DNA of 64,000 nucleotides from an uncultured Verrucomicrobiae bacterium (GTDB taxonomy: Bacteria > Verrucomicrobiota > Verrucomicrobiia > Chthoniobacterales > JAFAMB01). How positions within the stretch are numbered: position 1 is the stretch's first letter; each line of letters starts with the position of its first letter. The notes beneath the pieces were generated by a model. That model saw nothing but the letters and a program-made list of their open reading frames with translations, had not been told where the DNA came from and did not search any database. Where the stretch lies: the NCBI GenBank assembly GCA_963762565.1, contig CAVXLD010000010.1, forward strand, positions 96,001-160,000. The letters run 5' to 3'. The translations under genes and the position numbers were made by a program. Positions 61 through 58,744 of the stretch are shown here, piece after piece.

Positions 61-145
61 AATAGTTTTTCAGCAGTGCCTGCCGCGCCGAAGCTTGGCG
101 AAGGCGGGCGCTGAAATCGGCCTCGCAAGCGAGGCGCGCTCCAGG

Positions 146-3100: not shown

Positions 3101-3155
3101 ACAATTGAGCTGCGGTTACAATTGCAGCTACACGGGAACATCGTTTTTTAATCAT
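146..3155 (-). pseudogene. TonB-dependent receptor copy 1, interrupted by four 1-bp frameshifts (pseudogene or sequencing errors)
   Basis: Signal peptide MIKKRCS..., TonB box LEQVTVTG, plug motif RIEILKDGGSATYGDDAIAGVVN, C-terminus RFFYGQIEKKF*; colinear with TBDR2 across frame breaks at ~2460, ~660, ~505 and ~250, with no nonsense codons in the restored frame. Confidence 0.85.
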
Positions 3156-3329
3156 TATTTATCCTTGTTTCTCCTTGGCGACGCGGGTTGTGCCCTTCGC
3201 CAAGAACCCCTCGAAAAAGATTCAAAACCGGTTACCGGGACGATCCTGCTACCAGCCAACAGCCATCCGACTCCTTCTCCGAGTTCCGGTCTCAATTTGA
3301 GGTCGTTTTTGAGGCAAAACCGCCTACAG

Positions 3330-3379
3330 GTCAAGAAAATGTAAACAAATTTTGAACGAAATTGGGTCGAAGTTGTCAC
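3330..3379 (-). promoter_or_regulatory. TBDR1 promoter module: TTGAC -35-like box preceded by 11-bp-period direct repeats
   Basis: Minus strand GTGACAA-N4-GACCCAA-N4-GTTCAAA-N4-GTTTACA-N4-CTTGAC; conserved upstream of all five TBDRs. Confidence 0.7.
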
Positions 3380-3522
3380 TGTCTCTCATTTTGAACGCAC
3401 CGGCTTGGCGAACATCCATTTGAGGGCGACTTAGCCTCCTTATTCGACCAGTCGGACGATGTTGCCAGAGAAAGGCAAACTAGCCGTTCGACCCGCTTAA
3501 AAACCTCTTAACCAGTATTTTC

Positions 3523-3548
3523 TGTGAAAAAGCCGTAACAATATCAAG
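3523..3548. promoter_or_regulatory. Distal conserved box TGTGAA-N6-GTAACA followed by ATCAAG, upstream of TBDR1
   Basis: Near-identical copy at 11028-11053 and a degenerate copy at ~7300-7325, similarly placed relative to the proximal module. Confidence 0.5.
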
Positions 3549-3867
3549 GTTTTTCGAAAGAAAATTAAGGGCCGGAAGCCAGCCCATGCACCGGCCGAAT
3601 CGAGAGTTTGGCTTAGTGTAGCCATCGTCGCAATCAGGCTCAGAATTGCTCGAACGGCGGCAGCAGTGACGGGCTGCAATCGTTCGACCTGGCCTCTTTT
3701 AAGCCGTCGGGCGCAGATACCCAGGTTCTAGATTAGTTAATCGTTACGGCCAACCTCTTCCGAAGAAAGACGAAACCATCTTGTAGCGTGTTATTTCTTT
3801 TCAGAGCCCTGAGTTTCTACTGTGATCCTCGCAAAGCGGCGCGCTCAGATGGAGGTACGCGGTAAAC

Positions 3868-3895
3868 AAAAACGCCGGGCGCAAGCCCGGCGTTT
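3868..3895 (-). terminator. Intrinsic terminator downstream of TBDR2
   Basis: AAACGCCGGGC-GCAA-GCCCGGCGTTT with a U-tract on the minus strand. Confidence 0.75.
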
Positions 3896-3949
3896 ACTAG
3901 TTTTTCGGCGGGCGCCGAAATCGGCCTCGCAAGCGAGGCGCGCTCCAGG

Positions 3950-6900: not shown

Positions 6901-6966
6901 ACACAGCAACATCAATTGAGCTGCGGTTGCGATTGCAACCGGACTTGAGCTTGGGTAATTAGTCAT
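3950..6966 (-). CDS. TonB-dependent receptor copy 2 (one frameshift at ~6829 just after the signal peptide)
   Basis: Signal peptide MTNYPSS...TARAQ is in ORF 6751..6966 and the body in ORF 3950..6904; adding one C at 6828-6830 joins them (QTAAPPGGTAPTSGGELQTVTVTG); plug motif and terminal Phe present. Confidence 0.85.
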
Positions 6967-7105
6967 TAATTATCCTCGGTAGGCCTGGACACCGCCGGTT
7001 TTCGACCGCATCAAGGCCACGTTGAAACAATACTGACCCGGCACCCGCGCACGCGGGTACCGGATTACCTGCTCGGAACCGTTTGTGAGCTAAATCAGGC
7101 CGTCC

Positions 7106-7157
7106 GTCAAGAAAATGCGACGGCAAATTTTGAACAAATTTCTGGCGGAGTTGTCAC
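7106..7157 (-). promoter_or_regulatory. TBDR2 promoter module
   Basis: GTCAAG...TTTGAAC-N15-TTGTCAC on the + strand, same module as TBDR1 with 2 extra nt. Confidence 0.65.
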
Positions 7158-7526
7158 CACGCGATCTTCGCCGTGTGCGGGATAGGATCGCCTGCAAAGA
7201 GAGGGCCGTCCATGAATCACAGAATCCGATCACTCAAACCGTGGCTAGAGCAAGCGTCGTCGCTCAACCCTTTTCAAACAACCTCTGACCGGACCTTTTT
7301 GGTAAAAAAAAGTAACGACAGCAAGAACTTTTCGCGATTCTTTTAAGAGAAACCTCTTCAGCTGGAAAAAAATGTAGCGCTGGGTCGGGAGTCGCGAATC
7401 TCTGCCGAGCTCGCCGAATATCCTGCCTCCCCCCGTTCCTCGTTCCCAAGGTTTGGCGAGGGCGGAAGGAGAGGCGGAACCCATGGTGCCTACCGCTTCG
7501 GCCTCGCAAGCGAGGCAGCGCTCCAC

Positions 7527-7561
7527 AAAAAAAACGCCGGGCGTTAGCCCGGCGTTTTTTT
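7527..7561 (-). terminator. Intrinsic (bidirectional-looking) terminator downstream of TBDR3
   Basis: A8-CGCCGGGC-GTTA-GCCCGGCG-T7. Confidence 0.8.
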
Positions 7562-7621
7562 AAATAGTTTTTCGGCGTTGCCTGCCGCGCCGTAGCTTGG
7601 CGAAGGCGGGCGCCGAAAAAC

Positions 7622-10600
7622 TTAGAACTTCTTATCAACCGAGAACCAGAAATAGCGCTGGATGAAGTTAGCACCGCCAGCGTTATCAAAGTTCGAGAGG
7701 ACGTTATCCACAGCCAGAGGCGCCGGCGTGTCGAAGATGTTATTGATGCCGAAGGTGATCGTGGTGTTGGCCAGGAGATTGCGCCAACCCCAGCGAGATC
7801 CTTCGATGGGTGGTGCGATCGCCTTCTCGCCAATGATTCTCTTCCCTTCCTTATTGTAGCCAGGTTTTGGTGTTTCAGGCGTAATTTCGGTTGGTTGGCC
7901 GAACTTGTAAGAGATCTGCCAATCCAGAGTAGTCCAGCTGCCGATCAGGTGAACATAATTGGGGGCGTTCAAAGTGACGTTCGGGTTAGTGCCGTTAGCG
8001 GAGTTTGTAAAGTCTTGCTCCGAACCAACGTAATGGAGAGTGAAGCCGGTTCTGAATGTATCAATCCCAAACAGCGTCTTGGAATAGAAGGCGGTGGCCT
8101 GCATTTTCAGGTCCGGCGCGGCGCCGTTGGCCGTATCGGTCAAGTTGAAGACTCGAAAAAAGAGCGTGCCGTTCGGATTAACCCCCTGCACGGTTTGCGC
8201 GCTGACCCAGTAGAGGTACGACGCATCGAATTCCAGGTCGATTTTACCCCAGCTGTATTCCTTGCTGTCGTAGGTAAAGCCCGTCTCAATTCCTTCGCTA
8301 CGACTATCACCCAGGTTCAGGTAGGTGTTAGTAACCTCAACAGGTACTCCGCCTGGGCCCAAAACAATGCTGTTACCAGGAGGGAGCGGAACGCCAGCCG
8401 AAACGAGATCAAACACATTGGCGGCGGTTAAAGTCCCAAAGACTTGGTGTTGATCGAGCTGGAACCAGTTTATGTAAGCCGAAAACCCATTCGCCCATCC
8501 CCACCAGCTATGCTCCGGATCCTGAGACCCGGGATTCCAAACCGCTCCCAGGTAATACATATAGGCGTTCTCTGGCTTGAGTCTCGGGTTGCCCAAGGTC
8601 TCGGCAAGAACGGTAGCTGTCTGTCCATTCTGAAGGGTAATAGTGGTCTCAGCCGGTATTCCCGCGGAGGTAAACAGCTGTGGCAGTGACGGTGCTACGA
8701 AGGATTCCGAATAAGAAGCCCGGAGGGTCAGATCGTTGATCGGTTTCCACGCCAGCGAGAATTTCGGTTTCGCAGCACTACCGAAATCACTGTAATAATC
8801 CTGCCGCTCAGACATGACGAACTCGAGAGACCGCATTCCTGGAAAGGACCATTGACCACCAAGGATCGGGATATCAGCCTGTCCGAAGATGCTCCAAATG
8901 TTACGACGCGCGTTGACCAGCCTGCCGAGCGGGAACTGAATCGCAGTCAGATTACCATCGTAACTATTAGGATCATCGTTCTGAATGTAATCTTCACTGC
9001 GGTACTCTAAACCGCCGGCAACAGTGATATCGCCCGCTGGAGTCGACCATATTGTGCCGCCCGCGGTGACATGGAACTGCATGATGTCGCTCCTGATATT
9101 CTCAAAGATGCTGCCAACGAGGTTTTTATTACCATAAAAAGCGCTATTGGGTCCGGCAACCGTTTCATCGGCAAACGGGTTGAAGAATTGGCCGACGTTG
9201 CCGGGCAGAGTGCCATTCATGGCTTCCTGCATACCATTGAAGAAAAACATGTTCTTCATAGTCTCAGTGCCGTCAGATTCGCCGTAGAGCCAATTACCAT
9301 CGATTGCCCAGCCATGCGGCAGTTGAATCGTAGCCCCGGCAACCTCGCGGAATGTGGTGATGGTGGTGTCGGTCTTCAGCACGTTGAACTCGTTCAGAGC
9401 AAGTTCAAACACCTGCAGGGGTTCATGGAACGGATTGAATGGATTGTTCGCAGGAACAGTAATTCCGCTGTTAAACGGAGGCGGATAGATACCTTGGTTA
9501 GGACCATAGGTACTGGATTCCTCCGTTCGCGAGATGAGGAAGCTATCGTAGAGCTTTAACCACTCGGTTGGCTGGTAATCAATTTTAACTAAGCCGCCGA
9601 GGCGATCTTCCCGCGGGTACACTTGCAGGCCATTTATGGTGAATGACGAAGGATTCTGAGTTGTAAAGTTATTGAGGATAAAGTCATTAGGTGTCGGATT
9701 TACACCGTTAAAGCCCTGTTTTGTAATATATAGGTTCCCACTGTTTTGACCGATAAAAACTCCAGTCGGGAACGGGAATACCGCGGCGGCCGGATATTTA
9801 GGTGATAGAAGTGAATAATTCAGAAAGGTATCGCGCCGGTCGACTGCGTTCACCGGACTCTGCGTGTAGTAATCGAACGCTGCGACGACGTCGATCTTTG
9901 GAATAAAGGCCTCGCCAACTTGCGGCGCCGGCGGCGTCTTGCCATCTCCTACCGGTTCACCGCCACTGCCACCCCCTCGACCAAATTTCTCCTCGAAGCC
10001 GCCGGTGAATTCACCGTGATAAACTTCGTAATCACCTCGCTGGCTGATGCCGTAGTAATTGTAGATATCAGCCCCGGTATAATTGCTTTTGGTGATGAAG
10101 TTCACGACCCCAGCCACCGCATCCGTTCCGTACACGGCGCTACCGCCGTCCTGCAGGATCTGGACGCTGTCAATTGCACCTATCGGAATGCTATTGATGT
10201 CGACATAGTTAAACGCACCGGCAACCGATACCTGCGGAAACGGATAGGAAGGCATCCGCAGCCCATCCACCAGAACGAGGGTGTCGTTTGGAGGCAACCC
10301 TTTGAGCGCGATTGATGAGCCACCGGGAGAGAAACCGAAGCCAGTGGTTACCCCTGGGTTAAAGTTGCCCGTGGCTGCGGGAAGGTTTTGTAGCACGTCC
10401 TGGACGTTCTGATAGCCCGTCTTCTGAAAATACGCTTGATCGTAAGTGGTAACGGGGTTTGGACCTTCTCCGACACGCGGGATCAGGTAACCTGTAACGA
10501 TGACCTGTTGGAGCTCACCGCTGGTGCTTGCACCCGCGTTGGGTGCGGCGGCACGGCGGGGTTCTCACCCGGAGCTGGACTGGGCGCCGCTGTCTGCGCC

Positions 10601-10692
10601 TGAGCGCCAACGGTGAGCCCGAACGTAAGGACGAATTGGATTGCGGTCGCAAATGCGATTCTGGAGAGATATCGATTTAGATTAATAATCAT
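7622..10692 (-). CDS. TonB-dependent receptor copy 3 (one frameshift at ~10550 just after the signal peptide)
   Basis: ATG 10692 with GAGG upstream, signal peptide MIINLNRYLSRIAFATAIQF...AQAQ; the shifted frame continues ...SGELQQVIVTGYLIPRVGEG into ORF 7622..10396; ends RYFWFSVDKKF. Confidence 0.85.
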
Positions 10693-10847
10693 CGTGAACC
10701 TCAATTTCATCTTTGCGCCGCCTTTTCTGGCTTCGCCAAGATTCCTGCTGAAATTGCTTAATCCGGCCACCGACCAGCATTTGACACTTTTTCGGCGGCC
10801 AGAATCCACTCAGTTTGCACCCACTTTTGCGGGAAAACCTAGGAGCA

Positions 10848-10897
10848 GTCAAGGAAATGTAAGGAAATTTTGAACAAATTTCCTGCAAACTTGTCAC
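10848..10897 (-). promoter_or_regulatory. TBDR3 promoter module
   Basis: GTCAAGGAAATGTAAGGAAATTTTGAACAAATTTCCTGCAAACTTGTCAC, same 50-nt spacing as TBDR1 and TBDR5. Confidence 0.7.
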
Positions 10898-11155
10898 CGC
10901 GATTCTCGGTGTTTGGCGGATCGATCTTCTCCCCTGGAAAAAGCGGAGCTCTTCTGCGCATCAAAGCACCCGGAAAGTAAAGGGGGGAGTGCTCTTCGGC
11001 TTTTAAAAGCCGTTAATTCGACGTTTCTGTGAAAAAAACGTAACAAGATCAAGCCTTTTTTCGACAGATCCTTAAGAAGCGAGCGCCGAAGGCAGAGGAC
11101 AGGGACGAGTAACGCAGGAATGCCGGCGTCCAAGGGTGAGAAACAAACATGACGT

Positions 11156-11282
11156 GGGAGGGCGCGCGTCCCCGCGCGCTGCGAACGGGTCTATAATCTT
11201 GGGTGTAGCCTCGCGCGGGACTTGTTTGTCCCGGGTTTCGAAAACAAAACGGCCGCTGCCGGACGCGGACGCGATCCCTCCC
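11156..11282. repeat. REP doublet family D (both arms empty)
   Basis: GGGAGGGCGCGCGTCCCCGCGCGC ... GGACGCGATCCCTCCC; related copies at 18571, 33874 and 58558. Confidence 0.7.
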
Positions 11283-11510
11283 GCCGAAGGGCATTGGTCG
11301 ATAAGAGGACCGGGACGAAGCCTGGCGAGAGGACTAGTGGGCGGCGATGATGCCCCCCACATCACGACATAGAGAGCAGGCTTGCGTATGTTATGTCTCT
11401 CGATTTCCCTTGTTCACCACGGCCTCGCAAGCGAGGCAGCGCTCCATGGGTGGCGCCGTAGGCTTGACGAAGGCGGGCGCCGAAATCGGCCTCGCAAGCG
11501 AGGCGCGCCC

Positions 11511-14498
11511 CTAGAACTTCTTATCAATCGAGACCCAGAAATAGCGCTGGATATTGTTCGCACCGCTGCCGGGGTCGTAGTTAGTGAGAACGGCGTCCAC
11601 CGCGAATGGCGCAGCGGTATCGAAGATGTTGTTGATGCCGAAAGTAAAGGTCGTATTCGCCAGCAGATTGCGCCAGCCCCAACGAGATCCTTCGGGAGCA
11701 GGTGCAACTGCTTTTTCACCTACGATTCGCTTGCCTTCTTTATCATAGCCGGGCTTGGGCGTTTGAGGGGTAATTTCGGTTGGTTGTCCGAATTTATAGG
11801 AGATTTGCCAGTCGAGCGTCGTCCAACTACCGATCAAATGAACATAGTTCGGAAAATTCAAAGTGGCATTCGGGTTCGTATTATTGGCGCTGTTGGTGAA
11901 ATCCAGTTCGGAACCGATGTAGTGAAGAGTTAGCCCGGTTTTAACTGTATCGATCCCGAAGACGGTCTTGGAATAGAACGCGCTGGCCTGGAACTTCACG
12001 TCAGGCGAAGACGCACCCTGGAGCGCGGTGTCCGTCAGGTTGAAAACTCGGAAAAAAGGAGTCCCGTTGGCATTTGCGCCCTGTATGGTTTGCTGAGTCA
12101 GCCAGTAGAGATAGGTACCGTCAAATTGCAGATCGATCTTGCCCCAGTTGTATTCTTTGGAGTTGTAAGTGAAGCCGAACTCAAGGCCTTCGCTGCGGCC
12201 GTTCCCGAGATTCGCTACGGCGGTGGTAACCTCCAGAATCTGGCCGGTGGTTGCGTCCCGCGTAACGAAGTTTCCAGCCGGCGCAGACGCACCCAGATCG
12301 GCAACCTCTTGCGCGCTCAACGTACCGAATTGGTCGTGTTGATCGATTTGGAACCAGTTGATGTAGGCAGAGAACCCGTTAGCCCAGCCCCACCAGCTAT
12401 GTTCCGGATCACTAGATCCGGGAGACCAGACCCCTCCGACATAGTAAGTGTAAGCGTTCTCTGCCTTCAGATGGGGGTTACCGGTTGTCTGATTCAGTAC
12501 GGTTATCTGGCCGAGTCCAGGGTTCTTAGGGTCAACCAGGGTGGTCTCCGCGATCTGCGGCGCCGTGAAGAGTGCGGTTAAGCTCGGAGCAACGAACGAC
12601 TCCGAATAGGTGCCGCGAATGCTGAAATCGTTAAAAGGTTTGTACAGCAGCGCGAATTTGGGTTTAGCGGCGCTGCCGAAGTCGCTATAGTAATCTTGGC
12701 GCTCCGATATGACCAGTTCAAGGGACCGCATCCCGGGCCAAGACCAGGCGCCGCCGACGATCGGAATGTCTACCTCACCGAAGATACTCCAGATGTATCG
12801 CCGAGCGTTGGTTAAGGTACCAATCGGATTTTGAGGCGCAGTGAGGTTCCCGACTTTACCATAGGGATCCTCGTTCGCGATGTAATCTTCACTGCGATAT
12901 TCCCAGCCGCCCGCGACGGTGAGGGGACCCGATGGCAACTCCCACAGCGTGCCACCCGCGGTGGTATGGAACTGCATAATATCCGTCCGGATATTTTCGA
13001 AGATACTTCCGATGAGTAGCTTGTTTCCGTAGAAAGCGGCATTGGGACCGGCTACAGATTCATCCGCAAACGGATTGAAGAATTGCCCGACGTTACCGGG
13101 AAGGGTGCCATTTAACGCGTTTTGCAGTCCGGTGAAACGGAAGAAATTTTCCTGGGTCTCGGTTCCGTCGCTTTCACCGTAGAGAAAGTTGGAATCGATA
13201 TACCAACCATGCGGTAACTGGATGGTTGCGCCAACCACCTCACGGAACGTGGTGACGATCGTTTGGGTTCTCAGGACGCCGAATTCATTAAACGCCTGGG
13301 GACCGACCTGCAGGGGTACACCGAACGGATTGTACGGGTTGTCAGCCGGAACGATCAGGAAGGCATTCCCGGAGAATCCGCCACCATAAGTGCCTTGGTT
13401 TGGGCCGTACGTAGCCAGCTCCTCCGTACGATTAACGAGGAAGCTATCGTAGAGCTTTAACCAGGTAGTCGGCTCGTACTCGACTTTGACTAAACCGCCT
13501 AGCCGCTGTTCCCGCGGAACGACCTGCAGACCTTGGATGCTGAAAAATTGTTGCGGAGCGTTACTGTTGAAGTCGGCGGGCGTGGGGTTCACCCCGTTGA
13601 AGCCCAAATTGGGCTGGAGAAAGGTTCCCGCAGGAATGCCAGTCTTCGTAGGAGCTAACGTTGTAAACTCGCCAGTTAGACCCGGAAAAACGGCGTTATT
13701 CGGGTATTTGAAACTGTAACGAGAGTAATTTAACGCCTCCATTGAGCGATCAATCGCTTCGATCGGACTCTGGTCATAGTAATCGAATACTGCGAGCACG
13801 CTGAGCTTGGAGTCCTGACCTAATTTCTGCGTGATCCCACCGGTAAACTCACCGTGATAGACCTCATAGTCATCTCGTTGGCTGATCCCGTAATAATTGT
13901 AAATATCCGCCCCGTTATACCCTTCTTTGGTGATAAAGTTGACGACGCCGGCCACCGCGTCGGTTCCGTAGGTGGCGCTACCGCCATCATTCAAAATATC
14001 GACGCGGTCGATCGCACCAATCGGAATGCTGTTGATGTCGGTGAAAGTGAATGGACCGCTAGCGGGAGTGAACTGGAAGAACGGATATGCCGGCATGCGG
14101 AGTCCATCGACCAGAACCAGAGTATCTTGGGGCAGCAGCCCCTTGAGTGCAACCGACGCGCCCCCAGGCTGGAATCCGAATCCGGGTATGAAACCCGGGT
14201 TCACACTACCGGTAGCGGCGGGAAGCTGCTGTAGGACATCCGCAACATCTTGGTTTCCCGTTTTTGTGATGTAGGTCTGGTCATAGCTTGTTACTGGCTG
14301 CGGACCATCTCCAACGTGCGGGAGGAGGTAACCGGTAACGGTGACTTGCTGGAGCTCGTTTCCGGTGTTTTGGCTTTCGCCGGCGCCGGTGGCCGGTGAG
14401 GCGGTCTGGGCGTGGGTAGTAAACCGCAGCCCGAACAGGATTACGAACTGAACGACTGTCGCAAATGCGACGGTACGGAGATGTGGATATTTAATCAT
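11511..14498 (-). CDS. TonB-dependent receptor copy 4 (intact, 995 aa)
   Basis: Signal peptide, TonB box ELQQVTVTG, plug motif RVDILNDGGSATYGTDAVAGVVN, GINNIFD signature, terminal Phe. Confidence 0.95.
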   Translation of the reverse strand: MIKYPHLRTVAFATVVQFVILFGLRFTTHAQTASPATGAGESQNTGNELQQVTVTGYLLPHVGDGPQPVTSYDQTYITKTGNQDVADVLQQLPAATGSVNPGFIPGFGFQPGGASVALKGLLPQDTLVLVDGLRMPAYPFFQFTPASGPFTFTDINSIPIGAIDRVDILNDGGSATYGTDAVAGVVNFITKEGYNGADIYNYYGISQRDDYEVYHGEFTGGITQKLGQDSKLSVLAVFDYYDQSPIEAIDRSMEALNYSRYSFKYPNNAVFPGLTGEFTTLAPTKTGIPAGTFLQPNLGFNGVNPTPADFNSNAPQQFFSIQGLQVVPREQRLGGLVKVEYEPTTWLKLYDSFLVNRTEELATYGPNQGTYGGGFSGNAFLIVPADNPYNPFGVPLQVGPQAFNEFGVLRTQTIVTTFREVVGATIQLPHGWYIDSNFLYGESDGTETQENFFRFTGLQNALNGTLPGNVGQFFNPFADESVAGPNAAFYGNKLLIGSIFENIRTDIMQFHTTAGGTLWELPSGPLTVAGGWEYRSEDYIANEDPYGKVGNLTAPQNPIGTLTNARRYIWSIFGEVDIPIVGGAWSWPGMRSLELVISERQDYYSDFGSAAKPKFALLYKPFNDFSIRGTYSESFVAPSLTALFTAPQIAETTLVDPKNPGLGQITVLNQTTGNPHLKAENAYTYYVGGVWSPGSSDPEHSWWGWANGFSAYINWFQIDQHDQFGTLSAQEVADLGASAPAGNFVTRDATTGQILEVTTAVANLGNGRSEGLEFGFTYNSKEYNWGKIDLQFDGTYLYWLTQQTIQGANANGTPFFRVFNLTDTALQGASSPDVKFQASAFYSKTVFGIDTVKTGLTLHYIGSELDFTNSANNTNPNATLNFPNYVHLIGSWTTLDWQISYKFGQPTEITPQTPKPGYDKEGKRIVGEKAVAPAPEGSRWGWRNLLANTTFTFGINNIFDTAAPFAVDAVLTNYDPGSGANNIQRYFWVSIDKKF

Positions 14499-14640
14499 TC
14501 TGAGAAGGACTATTTTCGCCAGCTGGGTTTGGGAGCGACGCTGTAATCTGCGGCTCGGCGTGAGACCTAGCGCAAACCAGCTCAGTAAGTGAGTCGTAGC
14601 TGCCGCTATCCACTATGGCGCGACATCGTTTCTTAATCAC
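14491..14640 (-). other. 49-aa upstream ORF, degenerate duplicate of a TBDR 5' end, overlapping the TBDR4 start
   Basis: GGAGG 5 nt before GTG; starts VIKKRCR (TBDR1 starts MIKKRCS); an alternative frame reads IAAATTHLLSWFALGLT; stop overlaps the TBDR4 ATG (AATGATTAA). Confidence 0.6.
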
Positions 14641-14865
14641 TATTACCTCCATTTATTACTCCTCGAAGATCCTACCGGAACGCGCGAAAGTGTGAGCAGG
14701 TGCAGGACGTGATTGTTAGTCATCGTAACGCTAATCTAAACTTGGCGGTGCCGGTCCTGCTCTACCGACATCGCTGTCGAAAAATTTCTCCGCCACTTAC
14801 CGAAGAACGATTGACGCTCCTCCGATTGGGCAATGTGGCCGTTTTAGATGTAAACCGGAGGGAAA

Positions 14866-14917
14866 GTCAAGCAGCATCCGAGTAAAATATTGAACGAAGT
14901 TGCCTTGGCGTTGTCGA
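14866..14917 (-). promoter_or_regulatory. TBDR4 promoter module (most diverged copy)
   Basis: GTCAAG...ATTGAAC-N15-TTGTCGA with the 22-nt spacing retained. Confidence 0.55.
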
Positions 14918-15090
14918 GAGGACGGTTTCCTTTCTTAAGTCTTGCAAATCCTCGGCCCAATCAACGCGGTACAGAGCGTAGATTAAGGAAGAGCGGGCGG
15001 CACGAAACACCTTGGTCACCAGGGCCTCATCCCCTCGGCCGCGGGAAGACAGCCCTCCACGGTGGCCACCCTTTCGGTCTTGTCTCCACC

Positions 15091-15123
15091 AAAAAAAAAG
15101 CCGGGCGGAAACCCGGCTTTTTT
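15091..15123 (-). terminator. Intrinsic terminator downstream of TBDR5
   Basis: A9-GCCGGG-CGGAAA-CCCGGC-T6. Confidence 0.8.
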
Positions 15124-15206
15124 CCATAGTTTTTAAGCGGCGTCTGCCGCGCCGAACGCTCGGCGAAGGCGGGCGCTTAAATCGGCCTCGCAAGCGAGGC
15201 GCGCTC

Positions 15207-18170
15207 CTAGAACTTCTTATCAACCGAAACCCAGAAGTAACGCTGGATATTGTTCACACCGCTCTGGCCATCAAAGTTCGAGAGAACGCTATCCACCGCA
15301 AATGGTGCCGGCGTATCGAAGATGTTGTTGATGCCGAAGGTAATAGTTGTATTCGCCAGCAGATTTCGCCAACCCCAGCGTGATCCTTCTGGAGCAGGCG
15401 CGATGGCTTTCTCACCCACGATCCGTTTTCCTTCTTTATCATAACCCGGCTTGGGAGTTTGCGGCGTTAGTTCAGTCGGTTGCCCGAACTTATAGGAGAT
15501 TTGCCAATCCAGAGTCGTCCAGCTCCCGACGAGATGAACGTAGTTAGGAAAATCCAAGGTGGCATTCGGGTTGGTTCCGTTGGCGCTGTTTCTGAAATCT
15601 TGCTCAGAACCAATGTAATGGAGAGTCAGCCCGGTTCTAACCGTGTCGATGCCGAAGAGGGTCTTGGAATAGAAGGCGCTTGTCAGGAATTTCAAGTCCG
15701 GACCGGTTCCGTCGGCAGTATCTGTTAAGTTAAAATCCCGGAAAAAGATTGTCCCGTTTGGATTTACGCCTTGCAAAGTTTGCTGGGTAAGCCAGTACAG
15801 ATAGGAACCGTCGAACTGCAAATCGATCTTGCCCCAGCTGTATTCTTTCGATGTATAGGTGAAGCCGAACTCGATCCCTTCGCTGCGGCCGTTCCCGAGG
15901 TTCGCGACAGCCGAGGTAACCTCCAAAATCTGTCCGGTTACGGTGCTCCGGGTCACGAAGTTACCGGGCGGAGCAGCTCCTCCGAGATCGACGACTTCCT
16001 GCGGAGTCAAAGTACCGAACTGGTTGTGCTGGTCGATTTGGAACCAGTTGATGTACGCAGAGAATCCATTGGCCCAGCCCCACCAGCTATGCTCGGGATC
16101 ACTAGAACCTGGAGACCACACCGCTCCGGCATAATAGGTGTACGCATTCTCCGGTTTCAGATGGGTGTTGCCTGAAGTCAGAGAGAGTACGGTCTCTTGC
16201 CCGGCTGCAGGATTCTTGGGGTCAACTACACCGGTCTCGGCAATCTGCGGTGTCGTGAAGAGTTGGGTCAGACTCGGAGCGACGAACGACTCAGAATAGG
16301 TGGCCCGAAGGGTCAAATCGTTGATCGGCTTGTACAATATAGCGAATTTCGGTTTGGCGGCGCTCCCGAAATCGCTGTAGTAATCTTGCCGCTCCGACAT
16401 AGTCACCTCGAGCGACCGGACGCCAGGCCAAGACCAGGCGCCGCCCAGAATCGGGATGTCCACTTCACCGAAGATGCTCCAGATGTAACGGCGGGCATTG
16501 GTCAGGTCACCCGGGGGGAATTGCGGCGCCGTAAGGTTGCCTGATTTACTATAAGGATCATCATTGGCGATATAATCTTCACTACGATATTCGAAGCCTC
16601 CCGCGACCTGGATCGCACCGGAGGGTAACTCCCACAGCGTGCCTCCAGCAACGGTATGAAACTGCATAATATCGGTCCGGATATCTTCCCAGATATTGCC
16701 GATCAGCAGCTTATTGCCGTAGAAGGCGCTGTTAGGTCCAGCCACTGATTCATCCGCAAACGGGTTGAAGAATTGCCCAACGTTTCCTGGAAGGGTGCCA
16801 TTTAACGCTTGTTGTAGACCGGTGAAGCGGAAGAAATTGTACGTCGTCTCAGTTCCGTCGCTCTCTCCATAGAGGAAATTGGAATCGATATACCAGCCAT
16901 GCGGTAGCTGGATGGTGGCGCCAACTACTTCACGGAAAGTGGTGACGGTCGTATCGTTCTTCAGGACACCGAATTCATTGAATGCCTGCGGGCCAACCTG
17001 TAAAGCTTCACCGAACGGATTGTAAGGGTTATTAGCTGGAACGACGAGGAAGGCATTCCCCCCGAATCCACCACCATACGTACCTTGATTGGGGCCATAC
17101 GTACTGATTTCTTCGGTTCGGTTAACCAGGAAGCTGTCATACAACTTCAACCAGCTGGTCGGGTTGTACTCAATCTTGACCAAGCCGCCTAACCGTTGTT
17201 CCCGCGGATAGACCTGCAGGCCTTGAATACTGAATTGTTGTTCCGGATTACCATTGATGATGAAGTCCGACGGTGCGGGGTTCACGCCGTTGAATCCCGG
17301 CTTCGGCTGGTAGAAGTTTCCAGTTTGCAACCCAACGAATTGGCCCGTTAAACCCGGAAAGATAGGCGCGTCCGGGTATTTGGGGCTGTAGCGCGAGTAA
17401 TTCAACGCCTCCATTGAGCGATCGATGGCCTCTACTGGACTCTGATCATAGTAATCGAACACTGCCAGGACGCTGATATTAGAGTCCTGACCTAGCTTCT
17501 GCGTCAGGCCGCTGGTAAACTCACCGTGATACACCTCATAATCGTCTCGCTGGCTAATCCCGAAATAATTGTAAACATCGGCGCCGTTGTACCCGTCTTT
17601 GGTGATGAAGTTAACGACTCCAGCCACCGCATCGGTTCCGTAGGTGGCGCTACCTCCGTCGTTCAAAATGTCGACGCGATCGACCGCTCCCAAGGGAATG
17701 CTGTTGATGTCGGTAAAAGTGAATGGACCGCTATTGGTGGCGAACTGGAAAAACGGGTACACCGGCATGCGGAGCCCATCGACCAGCACCAAAGTATCAC
17801 TGGGCAGCAAGCCTTTCAGGGCAATGGATGCCCCACCGGGCTGAAATCCGAATCCGGGCACCACACCCGGATTCACGTTACCGGTCGCGGCAGGAAGCTG
17901 CTGCAATACGTCAGCAATCTGTTGGTTCCCCAGTTTTGAGATGAAAGCCTGGTCATAGGTTGTCACCGGCTGGGGGCCCTCGCCAACGTGCGGAATCAGG
18001 TAACCGGTAACCGTGACTTGCTGAAGCTCGCCACCGCTGGATGAAGTTTCGTTGGCAGCCGAACTTGGTGATGCCGTCTGAGCGTGGGTGGTACTCCCGA
18101 TCCCAAGCAAGATTACGAATTGAATGGTGGTCGCAGCAGCGACCCTTCGCAGATATCGATTTCTCATCAT
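15207..18170 (-). CDS. TonB-dependent receptor copy 5 (intact, 987 aa)
   Basis: Same motifs as TBDR4, its closest paralog; ends RYFWVSVDKKF. Confidence 0.95.
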   Translation of the reverse strand: MMRNRYLRRVAAATTIQFVILLGIGSTTHAQTASPSSAANETSSSGGELQQVTVTGYLIPHVGEGPQPVTTYDQAFISKLGNQQIADVLQQLPAATGNVNPGVVPGFGFQPGGASIALKGLLPSDTLVLVDGLRMPVYPFFQFATNSGPFTFTDINSIPLGAVDRVDILNDGGSATYGTDAVAGVVNFITKDGYNGADVYNYFGISQRDDYEVYHGEFTSGLTQKLGQDSNISVLAVFDYYDQSPVEAIDRSMEALNYSRYSPKYPDAPIFPGLTGQFVGLQTGNFYQPKPGFNGVNPAPSDFIINGNPEQQFSIQGLQVYPREQRLGGLVKIEYNPTSWLKLYDSFLVNRTEEISTYGPNQGTYGGGFGGNAFLVVPANNPYNPFGEALQVGPQAFNEFGVLKNDTTVTTFREVVGATIQLPHGWYIDSNFLYGESDGTETTYNFFRFTGLQQALNGTLPGNVGQFFNPFADESVAGPNSAFYGNKLLIGNIWEDIRTDIMQFHTVAGGTLWELPSGAIQVAGGFEYRSEDYIANDDPYSKSGNLTAPQFPPGDLTNARRYIWSIFGEVDIPILGGAWSWPGVRSLEVTMSERQDYYSDFGSAAKPKFAILYKPINDLTLRATYSESFVAPSLTQLFTTPQIAETGVVDPKNPAAGQETVLSLTSGNTHLKPENAYTYYAGAVWSPGSSDPEHSWWGWANGFSAYINWFQIDQHNQFGTLTPQEVVDLGGAAPPGNFVTRSTVTGQILEVTSAVANLGNGRSEGIEFGFTYTSKEYSWGKIDLQFDGSYLYWLTQQTLQGVNPNGTIFFRDFNLTDTADGTGPDLKFLTSAFYSKTLFGIDTVRTGLTLHYIGSEQDFRNSANGTNPNATLDFPNYVHLVGSWTTLDWQISYKFGQPTELTPQTPKPGYDKEGKRIVGEKAIAPAPEGSRWGWRNLLANTTITFGINNIFDTPAPFAVDSVLSNFDGQSGVNNIQRYFWVSVDKKF

Positions 18171-18289: not shown

Positions 18290-18339
18290 GTCAAGGAAAT
18301 GTGAGAAATTTTTGAACGAAATTGCGACAAGATTGTCAC
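18290..18339 (-). promoter_or_regulatory. TBDR5 promoter module
   Basis: + strand units TTTGAAC, TTGCGAC, TTGTCAC at an exact 11-bp period after GTCAAG. Confidence 0.7.
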
Positions 18340-18570
18340 CCCACGTAATTCGCTCGGGATTAAGACAATGTAGCCTGTTCAAGACAAGCTGGTTTCGCGA
18401 GTTGCTCCGGGTCGAGCCTGGCCGTCGATTCCTTGTGTCGGGGTAAGCTTTTTGTGTGCCAACCGGCGTATTCAACGCAGATCGGCCGCGCGATACCGCG
18501 GTAGAGATTCTGTGACGACTTTCCTCTTGAGGCGATATCCGGGCTTTAATTGAGTGGACGCCCATCGCCC

Positions 18571-18812
18571 GGGAGGGAATCGCTGCCTGTCCGACATAGC
18601 CTTCTGTCTGTAGGTCTTTCTTACTAGGGTTGGCGAAGTCGGATCCTCGCGATCCGGTGTTAGCGAGGCTGCGGATGTGTTGTGATCGCGGATCACAATA
18701 GATCTTTGGGTTGTGGCACATGCTCGCGGCGCGCGGGGATCCGACGTCGCCCTGTTGGCAGAAAAATCGATCGGATGCCTTAGGCTATGTCGGACAGGCA
18801 GCGCGCCCTCCC
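18571..18812. repeat. REP doublet family D, both arms carrying a 60-61-nt element-E insert
   Basis: GGGAGGGAATCGC[TGCCTGTCCGACATAGCC-N30-GGCGAAGTCGGA]TCCTCGCGATC and its inverted counterpart at 18728-18812. Confidence 0.75.
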
Positions 18813-18917
18813 CGATTTGCACCTCGCGACGCGGGGGGTGGGAGGTGCTTTTGGGGAGAAAAGCTGCAGTGCGATGTCAGTTCTTGCCCATCATGAGCCG
18901 GAACTCACCACTACCGC

Positions 18918-18948
18918 AAAAAAAAACGCCGGGCATTAGCCCGGCGTT
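18918..18948 (-). terminator. Intrinsic terminator downstream of tonB
   Basis: A9-CGCCGGGC-ATTA-GCCCGGCGTT. Confidence 0.8.
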
Positions 18949-19010
18949 AGTTACGTTTTCAGCAGGGGCCTGCCGCGCCAAAGGCTTGGCGAAGGCGGGC
19001 GCTGAAAAGC

Positions 19011-19679
19011 TCAGTGAGCGATCTGGAATACCACGGGCAAAGTGAACGTGCCGGTTTGGTCAGGTGCGAATTCCCAGTTACTTCTCACCCAGCGCGCAGC
19101 GGCACTGGAGAGGATGCCCGGACCAGAGACCGCCTGCACATCTGTGATATGGCCAGCCGACACGGTAATCGCCAACCGGACATCACCGGTGATATGCATC
19201 TGTAACGCTTGTGGCGGATAAGGCGGCTTGGGCGAGCGCATCAGTTTGCCTGAGCGGGCACCACCAGTTCCGGTTCCACCAACCACGCCATTCGCGAAGC
19301 CTTTCTGCATACCGGGCGTAGCCGCAGCATTCGGAGCCTCCTTCTTCTTTGGCGTTGGATGCGGCGCTGAGCTGGGCGCTGGAGTCGGTGTTGCTGCCGG
19401 TATTTCGAATTCCGGCGGTTTATCCAATGGAGGCGGAGTCGGTTCCGGATCCGGCGGTGGAGTTGGTTGTGGATCTGGCGGCTGTTCCTCTGGAGCATTC
19501 GGATCTCCTAGAGGCGGCGCATCGTTGGTGTCCACCGCGGTGAGAATTGTGGGCGGCTGCTCGGGCAGTCTGAACCAGTACCCGAAATACGCAGCGCTGC
19601 CGTTAAGCACCAGCGACAGCAACAAAAACCAAACCAACGAAAACCCGTCCCGACGGGATCGATACAAATTGTCGGACAT
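19011..19679 (-). CDS. tonB: Energy transducer TonB
   Basis: N-terminal TM helix, Pro-rich linker, C-terminal PKPPYPPQA...GDVRLAITV domain; follows exbBD. Confidence 0.9.
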   Translation of the reverse strand: MSDNLYRSRRDGFSLVWFLLLSLVLNGSAAYFGYWFRLPEQPPTILTAVDTNDAPPLGDPNAPEEQPPDPQPTPPPDPEPTPPPLDKPPEFEIPAATPTPAPSSAPHPTPKKKEAPNAAATPGMQKGFANGVVGGTGTGGARSGKLMRSPKPPYPPQALQMHITGDVRLAITVSAGHITDVQAVSGPGILSSAAARWVRSNWEFAPDQTGTFTLPVVFQIAH

Positions 19680-19791
19680 AGTTTAGTTTTTCAGCGCATG
19701 CTGAAAAACTCTGGTCGGCCTCATAACGCGAGGCACGCTCCAAAGATTGTCTTTCAGAATGCTGCTGTTAGTGATCGTTTGGTTATATTCT

Positions 19792-23058: not shown

Positions 23059-23121
23059 GCTCGCATCCTCCTTCGTCCGGCTTAGCCGGACTTCGGAGGA
23101 CAAGAGCGAGGCCGCTCCAGG
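23059..23121. repeat. Family A hairpin with element E (23065-23104) inserted in its loop
   Basis: Minus strand GGAGCGGCCTCGCT[CTTGTCCTCCGAAGTCCGGCTAAGCCGGACGAAGGAGGAT]GCGAG. Confidence 0.65.
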
Positions 23122-25352: not shown

Positions 25353-25780
25353 AAATTTTTCGCAGTGAGACCTTTCGACGTACAGGCGGGGCACTTACCC
25401 CGGAAAGTGACTTCAGCTTGTTTAATTAGGTACCCAGCGGGCAGATTCCAAGGCGCCTGGACCGGGATTTCAATGTCGTGCACCGCGCCGCACTCTTCAC
25501 AGAAGAAATGGCTATGATCGAGCAGGTTAGCGCAGTATCGCGTAGGGGCCCGATCGAGGTTGACTTGTTTGACGAGTCCGCTCTCGACCAGCGCTTCCAA
25601 GCAGTTGTAAACGGTGGCCAAAGAAATGGTCTCCATATGCTTTTTCGACCGCATAAACACCTCAACCGCAGTGGGATGGTCACGCTTCTGGAGAAGCACG
25701 GCGAGCACTTCCTCACGTTGCCTAGTCAACCGGATACCGCTGGCCGCTAGACGGTCTGTCACCTCGGAAGAAAGCTTCAC
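25349..25780 (-). CDS. Fur-family (PerR/Irr-like) transcriptional regulator
   Basis: [27 protein letters not shown] and CPAC motifs; GTG start at 25780 inferred. Confidence 0.9.
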
Positions 25781-25827
25781 GATTTGAGCGTCGCGTAACT
25801 GAGAACGGGATGCAAGTGAAAACGAGA

Positions 25828-25844
25828 TCAAGAATAATTCTAAA
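25828..25844 (-). promoter_or_regulatory. Putative Fur-family operator (ICE/Per-box-like)
   Basis: Minus strand TTTAGAA-TTA-TTCTTGA, 12/14 match to the Irr ICE consensus TTTAGAA-N3-TTCTAAA, ~50 bp upstream of the regulator. Confidence 0.55.
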
Positions 25845-25977
25845 TCAGGGATGGTGGGGAAGTCTGACGAGCGAGACGCGCTCGAAGTGGTCCGGATAGG
25901 ATCCGCCTTCGCAAAGCCTACGGCGCGAGCAGGCTTTATGGGACCTATAGGACTAATAGGTTTGAGCCGTGGAACTC

Positions 25978-26394
25978 TCAGTGTCCGCGGACAAATAAAG
26001 CCCAAAGCTTTGGGACGTAGAGCAGCAGGGCGACGAGGACGGAAACGATGGCGGCGATCAACACGGCGGCGGCTCCGATGTCTTTGGCTGCTTTGGCAAG
26101 CGGATGGAACCCTGGGGTTGTTGTGTCGATGGCGCGCTCGATTGCGCTATTGATGCCTTCGGCGACTAAAACCAGACCAATGGTCACGATTAAAATCGCC
26201 CACTCTAGGTGGGTGAAACCAAGGAAGGCGGCTAAGATGACGGCACACGCGGCCGCAGCGAGGTGAAGTTGGAAATGTCTTTCAGACGTGGCCAGGCGAC
26301 GGAGCCCACTGAAAGCAGCCCGGAATCCGTTGGCGCGCCGGGCGCCTTCCTTCTTGAGCAATTCTCCCCATTTGACTGCGATTTTCCTAGACAT
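25978..26394 (-). CDS. dgkA: Diacylglycerol/undecaprenol kinase (DgkA family)
   Basis: ERHFQLH, AEGINSAIERAID, AKAAKDIGAAAV; three TM helices. Confidence 0.9.
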   Translation of the reverse strand: MSRKIAVKWGELLKKEGARRANGFRAAFSGLRRLATSERHFQLHLAAAACAVILAAFLGFTHLEWAILIVTIGLVLVAEGINSAIERAIDTTTPGFHPLAKAAKDIGAAAVLIAAIVSVLVALLLYVPKLWALFVRGH

Positions 26395-26404: not shown

Positions 26405-26617
26405 TTGGTAGGGCGAGGCTCCGGAATAGACCACAAGCGTGTCGCGGCGCGAAATGGGACTTCGTTGGTATATGACATGCAACATCTGAAAGCTGCCGAG
26501 CCGCGGGTCGCGCAACCCATGGCTCGGCAGCTATCAGGCCGTGCTGCACATACAATGGCGAAACGTCACTTCGCCCTGCGACTGCCTTTCGCCTAGTCCG
26601 GAGCCTCGCCCTACCAA
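26405..26617. repeat. REP doublet family B, copy 1
   Basis: Outer IR TTGGTAGGGCGAGGCTCCGGA/TCCGGAGCCTCGCCCTACCAA; inner IR GCCGAGCC/GGCTCGGC 71-72 nt inside. Confidence 0.85.
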
Positions 26618-26708
26618 CTGCAAACTGCAAACTGCCAACCGCAAACTGACAACTCGATGGTTGACTCTTAGCGCGATAACGATTAGCGACCCATGCATTC
26701 TAATCCAC

Positions 26709-28114: not shown

Positions 28115-28330
28115 CCTGGAGGGGAGCCGCTTTGTAGGATGGCAATTCTATCGGATGGCAGCAGGCGACTCCCGGGAATTAACCAGCGTTAGCCATGGAA
28201 CAACGTGGCGTCACTAGAGGCTACCGATTTGGAATCAGCCGATAGAATTGCTTTGCTCCGGGAACGTTCTCGGGAGCCGCTTGCTGCCAACCGACAGAGC
28301 TGCCAAGCTAAAAAGCGGCTCCCCTCCAGG
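28115..28330. repeat. REP doublet family C, copy 1
   Basis: Each arm GGGAGCCGCTT-N30-AAGCGGCTCCC(like); arms inverted; lies between convergent genes. Confidence 0.8.
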
Positions 28331-30959: not shown

Positions 30960-30977
30960 GGTGGCGAGCTTACGCTT

Positions 30978-31060
30978 GAGGAGTTCAGGAGTTCAAGGAG
31001 TTCAAGGAGTTCGAGGAGCGAATGGGCGAATGGGCGAATGGGCATGTCGGCGTATCGGCG
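30978..31060. repeat. Short tandem repeats (GGAGTTCAA-like x4, GCGAATGG x3) directly upstream of mutS
   Basis: Read directly from the sequence. Confidence 0.8.
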
Positions 31061-31090: not shown

Positions 31091-31300
31091 CGTGGAGCGT
31101 TGCCTCGCTTGCGAGGCCGTGGTGAACAGAGGTAAGCGGGTGGCAGGCCTGAGCTTCTGCGGGGCTCGGCAGCGGGCCTTAGACTTCCAGACCACTGTTC
31201 CACCACGAGAAGCACTACAGAGCGCAGACTAGCATGGCCCTTCCAATCGGTTATCCCCCCGCTGTTCACCACGGCCTCGCAAACGAGGCAGCGCTCCACG
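31091..31300. repeat. REP doublet family A
   Basis: CGTGGAGCGTTGCCTCGCTTGCGAGGCCGTGGTGAACAG and its inverted copy; internal segment related to the 39087 copy (TAGACTTCCA, TACAGAGCG). Confidence 0.85.
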
Positions 31301-33873: not shown

Positions 33874-33993
33874 CGGGAGGGATCGCGTCCTCGCGATCAG
33901 TTGATACCGAAGCCGAGGGCGTACTGTGACCGAGGACGAAATACACCTTTGGGTAGTGCACGTCCTCGCGGCGCGCGAGGACCCGCGCCCTCC
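33874..33993. repeat. REP doublet family D (both arms empty)
   Basis: GGGAGGGATCGCGTCCTCGCGATC ... GCGCGCGAGGACCCGCGCCCTCCC. Confidence 0.75.
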
Positions 33994-39077: not shown

Positions 39078-39086
39078 AGGCGCTGA

Positions 39087-39287
39087 CCGTGGAGCACTGC
39101 CTCGCTTGCGAGGCCGTGGTGAGCGAGAGGACATCATCACATCCTGCCGTTTGCGATCCTGCGCTCTGTGGTGCACCGGTCCGACCCTAGACTTCCAAGC
39201 TCGATACAGAGCGTAGACAAACAAAGGGCGTATTTCACGATATTCCCCTGGTCACCACGGCCTCGCAAGCGAGGCAGCGCTCCACGG
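39087..39287. repeat. REP doublet family A between convergent sdhB and leuB
   Basis: CCGTGGAGCACTGCCTCGCTTGCGAGGCCGTGGTGA and its inverted copy. Confidence 0.85.
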
Positions 39288-39309
39288 GTGGCGCCCCCTC
39301 CATCTGCGC

Positions 39310-42148: not shown

Positions 42149-42167
42149 AAATCAACTCTCCATATCC

Positions 42168-45164: not shown

Positions 45165-45178
45165 AGGAGCTTTCTAAG

Positions 45179-45338: not shown

Positions 45339-45368
45339 TGTTTTTGAATTCAGTTAGAGCGGACGCGT

Positions 45369-47891: not shown

Positions 47892-47892
47892 C

Positions 47893-48125: not shown

Positions 48126-48127
48126 AA

Positions 48128-58557: not shown

Positions 58558-58744
58558 GGGAGGGCGCGCTGCCTGTCCGACATAGCCTGGTGCGTGCAAG
58601 CAACTTTTCTCCCACCGGGGCGACGTCGGATCCTCGCGCGCCGCGAACAGGGTCCACAATTTTAGATCTAGGATAACGCAGGATCGGGTCTGTCGCGGAC
58701 TTCGAGAGCAATCCGGCGACTGCCGGACGAGGACGCGATCCCTC
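58558..58744. repeat. REP doublet family D, left arm filled with the 61-nt element E, right arm empty
   Basis: GGGAGGGCGCGC[TGCCTGTCCGACATAGCC-N31-GGCGACGTCGGA]TCCTCGCGCGCC ... GAGGACGCGATCCCTCC. Confidence 0.75.

Follow-up and report, generated by a model that had tools for sequence, protein, structure and literature searches.

How does one palindrome come to lie in the loop of another? The question is raised by positions 18571-18812 of a 64,000-nucleotide stretch of DNA from an uncultured Verrucomicrobiae bacterium (contig CAVXLD010000010.1, positions 96,001 to 160,000; hereafter the window), where a small hairpin, element E, sits inside the arms of a larger inverted repeat resembling repetitive extragenic palindromic (REP) sequences. 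An earlier note on this DNA had taken E for a discrete mobile unit lodged in REPs. The many contexts of E and its filled and empty sites support that proposal in part; no mobilising enzyme was found in about 0.43 Mb. It is quite likely that E is, or was, a unit inserted independently and with a bias toward hairpin loops. We lean toward regarding it as a REP-like miniature palindromic family of Verrucomicrobiota chromosomes that would be mobilised in trans, as single-stranded DNA, into unpaired loops.

E is a discrete, noncoding, hairpin-forming repeat of 30-60 nt. Its first bases are C[CT]TG, usually preceded by G. A lower stem of 6-7 bp follows, then an internal loop and a top that varies between copies, and the unit closes with the lower stem's 3′ arm. 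The foot reads CCTG, CTTG, TCTG, or CGTG in all copies. The internal loop is kept in all subfamilies, with RWAG on the 5′ side opposite CGA[AC] on the 3′ side (4x4, purine-purine mismatches, at most one Watson-Crick pair). The apical part spans 5 to 36 nt across copies: short E (about 30 nt) has the top CCTTGG or similar, and long E (about 60 nt) has 24-36 further unconstrained nucleotides there. Its loop hosts in the window are inverted doublets of D arms, hairpins in 3′ untranslated regions (UTRs; T hairpins), and a hairpin of family A; elsewhere the internal loop of another E also serves.

A covariance model (R1), whose sole structural element was the lower stem (6 bp), was built from an alignment of 12 short copies that included no D-hosted ones, and was run over the window with filters off. 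It returned ten matches of at least 22.7 bits, the next match being at 11 bits. Nine of these are the sites given in the earlier note, all of which proved real; the tenth, at 11444-11480, is added here. The ten copies are as follows.

79..108, plus strand: T1, short, CCGCGCC stem, in T hairpin 66-116 with a flanking stem of 7 bp; model match 76-111, 47.4 bits, in the training set.
7581..7610, plus strand: T2, in T hairpin 7567-7621, flanking stem 12 bp; model match 7578-7613; fold -21.4 kcal/mol, z = -4.4.
11444..11480, plus strand: T-type E in which an A-family repeat has taken the place of the foot and of the host's 5′ arm; model match, 34.4 bits.
15143..15173, plus strand: T3, with TCTG as foot and GAAC where other copies have RWAG, hosted by T hairpin 15130-15181, flanking stem 8 bp; model match 15140-15176, 45.3 bits.
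18586..18643, plus strand: D1, long, reading CCTG, TCCGAC, ATAG, a 34-nt top, CGAA, GTCGGA; model match 18583-18646, 28.2 bits, untrained.
18740..18798, minus strand: D2, long, in type-1 D arm 18727-18811; model match 18737-18801, 22.7 bits.
18969..18999, plus strand: T4, in T hairpin 18956-19008, immediately 3′ of tonB; model match 18966-19002, 50.8 bits.
23066..23104, minus strand: E with a TCCTCC stem and a 6-bp upper hairpin, in the TT loop of A-family hairpin 23059-23112; model match 23063-23107, 29.7 bits; fold z = -4.0.
25901..25932, minus strand: T-type E without a T hairpin, upstream of fur, flanking stem only 3 bp; model match 25899-25935, 40.2 bits.
58572..58630, plus strand: D3, long, in type-1 D arm 58559-58644; model match 58569-58633, 22.7 bits.

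The three long D-hosted copies, placed by the note in family-D loops at 18584-18643, 18740-18800, and 58570-58630, are outside the training alignment, and the model nevertheless found them full length across a 30-nt insertion (22.7-28.2 bits, expectation values 3.5e-4 to 6.8e-3). Because these untrained copies matched end to end, the T, A, and D inserts form one family. The locus that raised the question is a single doublet:

18566..18815: REPIN-like inverted pair of D arms, recognised from its inverted repeats, with E in both arms.

The outer arms of 18571-18812 (18570-18602 and 18782-18814) are 33 nt long and 85% complementary, and each arm contains an inner 12-nt inverted repeat enclosing 30-31 nt. 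The host of D1 is the type-2 arm 18572-18656, for which a nested fold is predicted.

Relatives were sampled by scanning a sequence collection with a 17-mer taken from E, which gave at least 85 stretches, with 86 matches listed (loci are written L plus a number); 0.37 Mb of the listed loci is labelled Verrucomicrobia and about 0.99 Mb is not. Most listed matches are single coincidences in coding sequences of unrelated phyla. A complementary arm follows within 63 nt downstream in 19 of the 86, and all 19 lie in contigs of metagenome-assembled genomes (MAGs) labelled Verrucomicrobiota, Verrucomicrobiae, or Chthoniobacterales (CAWIPH01, JAFAHI01, JAFAIO01, DASUWQ01). The source genome of the window is absent from the listed loci, which have only repeat families in common with it, at 72-94% identity. 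Over 85 listed loci, 41 of 47 model matches fall in the Verrucomicrobia-labelled DNA; the other six are three in L022, one in L073, and two overlapping the seeding 17-mer. A strict descriptor (foot, stem, RWAG, and CGAM) matches seven times in the 64-kb window and six times in the listed loci without the label, where two matches, both in L022, look genuine. A short E with the D-type stem exists at L041:4103-4132, as the note's model predicts.

The covariation that the note had seen in stem 1, with the internal loop kept, holds in an alignment of 56 sequences, which is fitted to the model and made of related sequences: 92.9% of the stem-1 cells are paired versus 82% in shuffles, cells with a double change number 28 versus 8.3 expected, compensatory changes on both sides occur in four of six pairs, and G-T pairs are few. 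The minimum-energy DNA fold of T-type copies pairs the CCTG foot, unlike the note's model.

Empty counterparts of the hosts occur in the same window:

3903..3920: T hairpin without an insert, lying 3′ of receptor gene two (sequence comparison).
11157..11281: D doublet with both arms empty, 11157-11179 on the plus and 11259-11281 on the minus strand (arm classification).
19687..19708: second empty T hairpin, with a 9-bp stem and loop GCAT, 3′ of exbD (intergenic sequence).
33876..33993: D doublet with both arms empty, 33876-33898 on the plus and 33971-33993 on the minus strand (arm classification).

Together with the partner arm of the D3 doublet (58723-58745, minus strand), which is also empty, arm classification confirms the empty D arms claimed in the note, at 11157, 11281(-), 33876, 33993(-), and 58745(-). 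The claim of E in T hairpins with an empty one at 3903-3920 stands too, and 19687-19708 is a second such site. An empty arm of the 33876-33993 doublet folds into a hairpin of 7 bp closed by a loop of 4 nt (z = -3.7). The A host minus E is an ordinary empty A hairpin with a TT loop; the T hosts minus E are perfect hairpins of 8-9 bp with loops of 3-5 nt. There is no target-site duplication at the A or D hosts, and elsewhere only ambiguous overlaps, of 2 nt (GA) for E within E and of 4 nt (GGCG) at T sites. The window's four D doublets have both arms empty (twice), one arm filled, or both filled, and D doublets in the CAWIPH01 loci likewise occur with no, one, or two E units. In CAWIPH01 the host-stem variants CAC/GTG and CGC/GCG are each found both filled and empty; therefore there has been more than one gain or loss, or recombination. 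The D elements are REPIN-like doublets and themselves vary in presence between species. In one D doublet, L050:9857-10029, the left arm combines a type-1 5′ half, a type-2 3′ half, and an E top of the right-arm type, a mosaic that suggests recombination or conversion between arms through E.

The same E subfamilies recur in at least 10 flanking contexts in several Verrucomicrobiota MAGs among the listed loci. The TCCGAC subfamily is found in D arms of four MAGs and of the window, in an AACGCC/GGCGTT hairpin (L050), and inside other E copies (L041, L021). E also occupies the ends of a 430-bp inverted-repeat element (L040, where it is of the TCCGAC subfamily, and L025) and an AGCCTG/CAGGCT hairpin (L044, L067), and in L076 it is flanked by genuine tandem arrays of 7-10-mers. 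The nested copies have exact junctions: L021:4165-4335 equals two L076 copies plus a 59-nt segment that corresponds exactly to a single E unit and splits the GAAG of the outer copy into GA and AG; the arrangement in L041 is alike. T-type and TCCTCC-type copies without their usual hosts occur at 25901-25932 of the window, L035:9781-9817, and L017:7463-7494. E lies on both strands relative to transcription, and one copy is within an unannotated ORF of 1,900 codons in L017. Most copies are single; E forms inverted pairs only in hosts that are doublets themselves (window 18566-18815; L021, L030, L050, L067; L040:13576-13964).

The flanks of E are enriched for inverted repeats, which the note had proposed as a check. 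A flanking stem of at least 5 bp surrounds 12 of 24 copies versus 5.1-6.4% of 9,977 random intergenic positions of the window, an excess of about tenfold, and two further copies lie in the internal loop of another E. The hairpin-loop bias is strong, not absolute.

How might such a unit spread? Since E has no coding capacity, it would be copied in trans. A folded single strand of E could be excised or copied by an enzyme supplied in trans and joined into DNA that is already single-stranded, for example the loop of an extruded hairpin; repeated insertion into loops would then build nested palindromes. HUH enzymes such as the Y1 nuclease TnpA-REP need substrates that are single-stranded. Recognition might follow that by TnpA-REP, with a conserved tetranucleotide at the 5′ side, then a lower stem, a zone of mid-stem mismatches, and an upper half whose sequence is free. 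TnpA-REP is described as requiring an imperfect palindrome with a bulge after the conserved motif, the upper half being purely structural, in an account that calls the spread of REPs still poorly understood (PMC8266576). The layout of E matches what the E. coli-type TnpA-REP reads, and folded single-strand excision or copying is for this reason the most likely route. This route, which we infer as a whole, would explain the loop bias, the absent duplication, and the nesting.

Several observations weigh against an E that moves on its own and by such a route. Half of the copies (12 of 24) have no clear hairpin host. A D arm minus E is an empty arm plus one extra T or A, not a clean insertion. The T host is ambiguous: taking 31 nt, which lie between direct repeats of GGCG, out of the T2 site gives the empty hairpin 3903-3920, and a GGCG-mediated deletion from a filled site could explain it equally well. 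The only syntenic pair among the listed loci, L040 and L067 (flanks 81% identical), has a doublet in L067 and none in L040, and this orthologous site shows presence or absence of the whole D doublet, not of E alone. D+E arms fold no better than shuffles (z = -0.35 and -0.03), so the structural evidence for them is comparative, not thermodynamic. Ascertainment is a further concern, since the 17-mer that retrieved the relatives comes from E. The foot differs as well, being GT[AG]G in REPs and CYTG in E. The note had pointed to REPs with a GTAG-type foot as substrates of RAYT nucleases; in E a GTAG-like motif does exist (RWAG sometimes reads GTAG), yet it is inside the hairpin, and the foot position reads CYTG.

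The copies also do not look recent, judging from their tops. The three D-hosted copies of the window have similar arms and no apical sequence in common; between genomes, apical identity is 0.56 versus 0.51 for shuffled partners, with the arms unchanged. Conserved arms with scrambled tops would also suit selection at each locus. Within CAWIPH01, left-arm tops resemble each other and right-arm copies have a different top, the median identity over all tops within the genome being 0.66. By eye, the top of D1 resembles those of type-2 arms in JAFAHI01. The note described a further insert of 30-31 nt in the loop of D-hosted E. This 30-nt top of the long form is that of an inherited, old subfamily diverging freely, and not a new insertion. 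Captured sequence was considered as an origin of the tops and set aside: when the window's three tops were compared by blastn-short with the window and 85 listed loci, nothing beyond chance similarity over 10-19 nt emerged. As a gauge of strand bias with respect to replication, GC skew was taken over ten CAWIPH01 loci of 20 kb; it is weak (-0.03 to +0.04) and bears no relation to the orientation of E.

The mobilising enzyme has likewise not come to light, in a search that covered about 0.43 Mb and not a whole genome. Genes of the HUH Y1 or IS110-like kind, which the note had proposed looking for next to dense E clusters, did not turn up: Pfam searches found no HUH/Y1, IS110-type, transposase, or integrase domain in the 43 window ORFs and, among 150 ORFs within 2 kb of E in 25 listed related loci, no transposase or integrase other than one DUF4158 fragment. 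This neighbour set comprises 150 of 158 ORFs, leaving aside two that overlap elements and six from L022; about 250 ORFs farther off are outside the scan. A regular-expression scan for HUH-Y1 motifs (those of PMC6006769) over 1,898 stop-free segments gave no candidate. Genes adjoining E copies are housekeeping genes. That the enzyme is a RAYT-like HUH protein (RAYT, REP-associated tyrosine transposase) is a tentative guess, and one we would sooner doubt than assert. The DUF4158 fragment (Tn3-type N-terminal domain, 123 aa, L019:7670-8041), about 2 kb from a truncated D+E arm, is the sole transposase-related match near E.

Among known systems, the E. coli-type (group 2) REP/REPIN-RAYT association is a close parallel. 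REPs, like E, are short, mostly intergenic, multicopy imperfect palindromes. Inverted doublets occur as well, in E only where the host is doubled. As portrayed in PMC8266576, they also have the unpaired 5′ foot tetranucleotide, lower stem, mid-stem mismatch, and sequence-free upper half; REP copies in 3′ UTRs and sometimes in frame in genes, as in Opitutus terrae, are mentioned in PMC3733652. Besides the foot, E differs from REPs in having an upper half of up to 36 nt, no cognate Y1 gene in the DNA sampled, and a characteristic nesting in other hairpins and in its own kind. Nesting does have a precedent: for Thermomicrobium roseum, a passage of Di Nocera et al. 2013 (PMC3733652) mentions GTAG-23 REPs that lie in CCGSSCC(n3-4)GGSSCGG palindromes, with hundreds of unoccupied targets, and gives similar cases for Anabaena variabilis and Halothiobacillus neapolitanus. 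This is, as with E, a REP in a small palindrome with filled and empty sites, and the T-type lower stem CCGCGCC fits the target consensus of T. roseum. The passage amounts to one paragraph on an association that its authors did not study, and it contains no exact junctions, self-nesting, or multilevel nesting, and no case of the E family in Verrucomicrobia. It is the nearest account in the literature searched, where no description of the E family, of E sequence strings, or of self-nesting was found. Identity of E with GTAG-17 to GTAG-20 of O. terrae was set aside on a visual comparison, in which untranslated E showed no likeness to the peptides encoded by those REPs (PMC3733652, Additional file 3).

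Class 3 TnpA-Y1 proteins, described from Planctomycetes and Acidobacteria with atypical flanking hairpins that have a CnGA foot (Quentin et al. 2018, PMC6006769), offer a second parallel, with high-copy hairpins, a non-GTAG foot, soil phyla in or near the Planctomycetes-Verrucomicrobia-Chlamydiae (PVC) group, and a REPtron-like logic. The foot is CnGA rather than the CYTG of E, and no such gene was found in the DNA sampled here. Insertion sequences that target REPs (IS110 family, ISPpu9) are also mobile DNA landing in repetitive palindromes; by the account in PMC12288879 they are autonomous, longer than 1 kb, and encode a transposase, whereas E is noncoding and 30-60 nt long. A MITE (a transposable element of miniature size with inverted repeats) derived from an insertion sequence is a poor fit for E, whose ends show no fixed-length target-site duplication; no transposase adjoins any sampled copy (43 window ORFs, 150 neighbouring ORFs), and there is no plasmid or phage match. 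The palindromes of Lobosphaera mitochondria (PMC4524435) are not relevant.

Could E never have moved alone? Composite ancestors (D+E, T+E, A+E, E+E) might have spread whole, the empty sites being later slippage deletions, and palindromes are deletion-prone. The GGCG repeats at 3903-3920 fit this scenario, the GA ambiguity at the junction of E within E could be microhomology, and the common left-arm tops of CAWIPH01 indicate that D+E spreads as a unit there. Yet the same subfamily resides in otherwise unrelated hosts (D arm, AACGCC hairpin, L040 ends, outer E, A hairpin), and since these hosts share nothing else, E entered them separately. Moreover, filled and empty D arms are not related by deletion between direct repeats, and T-type and TCCTCC-type copies exist outside their usual hosts. 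The note had asked whether all empty sites arise by deletion: the T site can be explained so, while the D arms and the varied contexts argue otherwise. We regard the composite scenario as improbable. Somewhat less probable still is a hairpin maintained by the host, as a protein-binding or RNA-stabilising module that is selected or spread by gene conversion, with nesting marking only where it is tolerated. Such a function would suit the invariant arms beside an apical 30 nt that is near random between genomes, the stems kept with few G-T pairs, the place of T+E between stop codon and terminator-like hairpin, and the activity reported for REPs in 3′ UTRs in a preprint (bioRxiv 10.64898/2026.03.23.713779, as summarised there). 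It sits badly with copies on both strands and inside coding sequence (the E2 acyltransferase linker of L041, the L017 ORF), with E inserted in its own copies, and with the lack of any Rfam family match; and a sequence-specific 30-nt module at many unrelated loci still requires copying.

Two further explanations were weighed. E might be the folded-DNA site of a tyrosine recombinase, like integron attC, or of another structure-reading enzyme that is not HUH, and the absence of an HUH gene among the window ORFs, the neighbouring ORFs, and the motif scan agrees with this. Like a folded attC site, E has two stems, an unpaired central spacer, and a terminal structure of variable length, and its TCCGAC stem is one base pair off what we take to be the attC R-box consensus (RYYYAAC / GTTRRRY). 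The parallel between IntI/attC and TnpA-REP/REP is itself drawn in PMC8266576. However, no conserved AAC/GTT core runs across the subfamilies, those with CCGCGCC and TCCTCC stems lacking the triplets; there is no cassette array, no intI in the window and no integrase there or next to E copies, and E occurs nested and in both orientations. We consider this reading distinctly unlikely. Negligible, in our judgement, is the chance that the inserts of the T, D, and A hosts are GC-rich hairpins of three separate kinds with no relation to one another. Their common motifs are short (4 + 4 + 4 nt), and a loose descriptor without the foot also matches five unrelated places in the window; but a model without D training finds all three D copies full length with an 11-bit gap to noise, the predicted short form with a D-type stem exists in L041, and in the 0.99 Mb of loci not labelled Verrucomicrobia only two overlaps with the seed 17-mer are found besides L022 and L073.

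What is documented here as new is a REP-like family with a different foot, short and long forms, and insertion into hairpin loops at up to three levels. With it, the known range of REP-like elements whose foot is not GTAG comes to include Verrucomicrobiota and may reach further. Clean REP junctions are rare, and E provides filled and empty pairs at near single-nucleotide resolution in several hosts, including copies within copies. The lack of a clear duplication and the tenfold loop bias are the footprints expected of single-strand, structure-dependent integration. A bolder version of the trans-mobilised E family, which we think unlikely as it stands, is that E is the substrate of an undescribed single-strand insertion system directed at the unpaired DNA of extruded hairpins, its own GAAG internal loop included, so that E would seed its own targets and build multilevel palindromes. 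If so, the invariant arms would reflect upkeep, by the enzyme or the host, of the readability of every copy, and the system would resemble the long-term REPIN-RAYT association with a different foot, possibly a different enzyme class, and in the PVC group. In practice, such nesting of palindromes has consequences for assembling Verrucomicrobiota genomes and for annotating their intergenic DNA, 3′ UTRs, and even protein linkers.

The window is ordinary chromosomal DNA with 54% G+C. It contains five tandem TonB-dependent receptor genes, followed by tonB-exbBD, suf genes, fur, mutS, sdh, his genes, and others. All ten E copies lie between annotated ORFs: T1 is in the 3′ UTR of a TonB-dependent receptor gene, the A-hosted copy is between sufB-like and sufD-like genes, and in four 3′ UTRs the T+E hairpin is between the stop codon and a terminator-like hairpin. 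T+E was discarded as an intrinsic terminator, as a consensus scan (GC-rich hairpin plus T run) flags no T or E hairpin; it flags the neighbouring AACGCCGGGC-type hairpins at 25-60, 3870-3895, 7528-7561, 15094-15123, and 18925-18948. The copy upstream of fur had been assigned by the note to a tract of tandem 9-mers at about 25901-25933, where TRF finds no tandem array (25780-26020). Searches for tRNA and tmRNA in the window found none. The Rfam search suggested in the note gave 0 matches over the whole window and no family at gathering score; on 18300-19100, with expectation values up to 10, only subthreshold terminator-like matches appear at about 18919-19002. A 261-nt query of the doublet had no match in plasmid and phage collections.

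The five receptor paralogues (146-18170, minus strand) are 60-82% identical in DNA stretches, and the same set of small hairpins follows each of them. In the first of them the reading frame is broken into two or more ORFs that overlap (638-2482, 2430-3155), which points to either a pseudogene or an assembly frameshift.

Some further E-like sequences deserve mention. L041:4075-4160 is a nested pair (about 60 nt) lying in frame in the gene for the E2 component of a 2-oxoacid dehydrogenase (ORF L041:3555-4925), in the linker between the E3-binding and catalytic domains. Three copies in L022 (9999-10035, 14706-14741, 19665-19701) are GC-rich islands in a contig of 43% G+C labelled Candidatus Babeliales, and one E-like copy in L073 and an E-like string in L047 are in contigs labelled only "bacterium"; these represent either the E family beyond Verrucomicrobiota or misbinned contigs. 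An Opitutales chromosome among the listed loci, OY829953, has three times a short variant with the same 17-mer, whose 3′ arm is complementary to the lower stem at four of six positions:

L009:9999-10034: Opitutales short variant.
L064:7175-7210, 9894-9929, and 9999-10034: Opitutales short variant.
L068:9984-10019: Opitutales short variant.

By eye, the copies in L009 and L068 are each within a different AGCGNGCT/AGCNCGCT hairpin.

Other short repeat families crowd the intergenic DNA of the window. Family A forms MITE-like doublets of about 200 bp at 31095-31300 and 39085-39290, which have a common interior and end in inverted repeats some 40 nt long, and single A hairpins at 12 or more further intergenic sites; the A repeat starts with GTGG and may be a GTGG-tagged REP. 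A third family comprises inverted-repeat elements of about 250 bp at 41855-42150, 47892-48127, and 53760-54005, with ends GGTGGGGCGAGGCTCC and an inner inverted pair. A fourth (28120-28330 and 47190-47255) has inverted GGAGGGGAGCCGCTT ends and is also found in L036 at 84-85% identity. Words of 7-10 nt, in tandem or interspersed, fill the intergenic stretches 26615-26650, 30975-31050, 43311-43447, and 45165-45368, and similar tracts border the E copies of L076.

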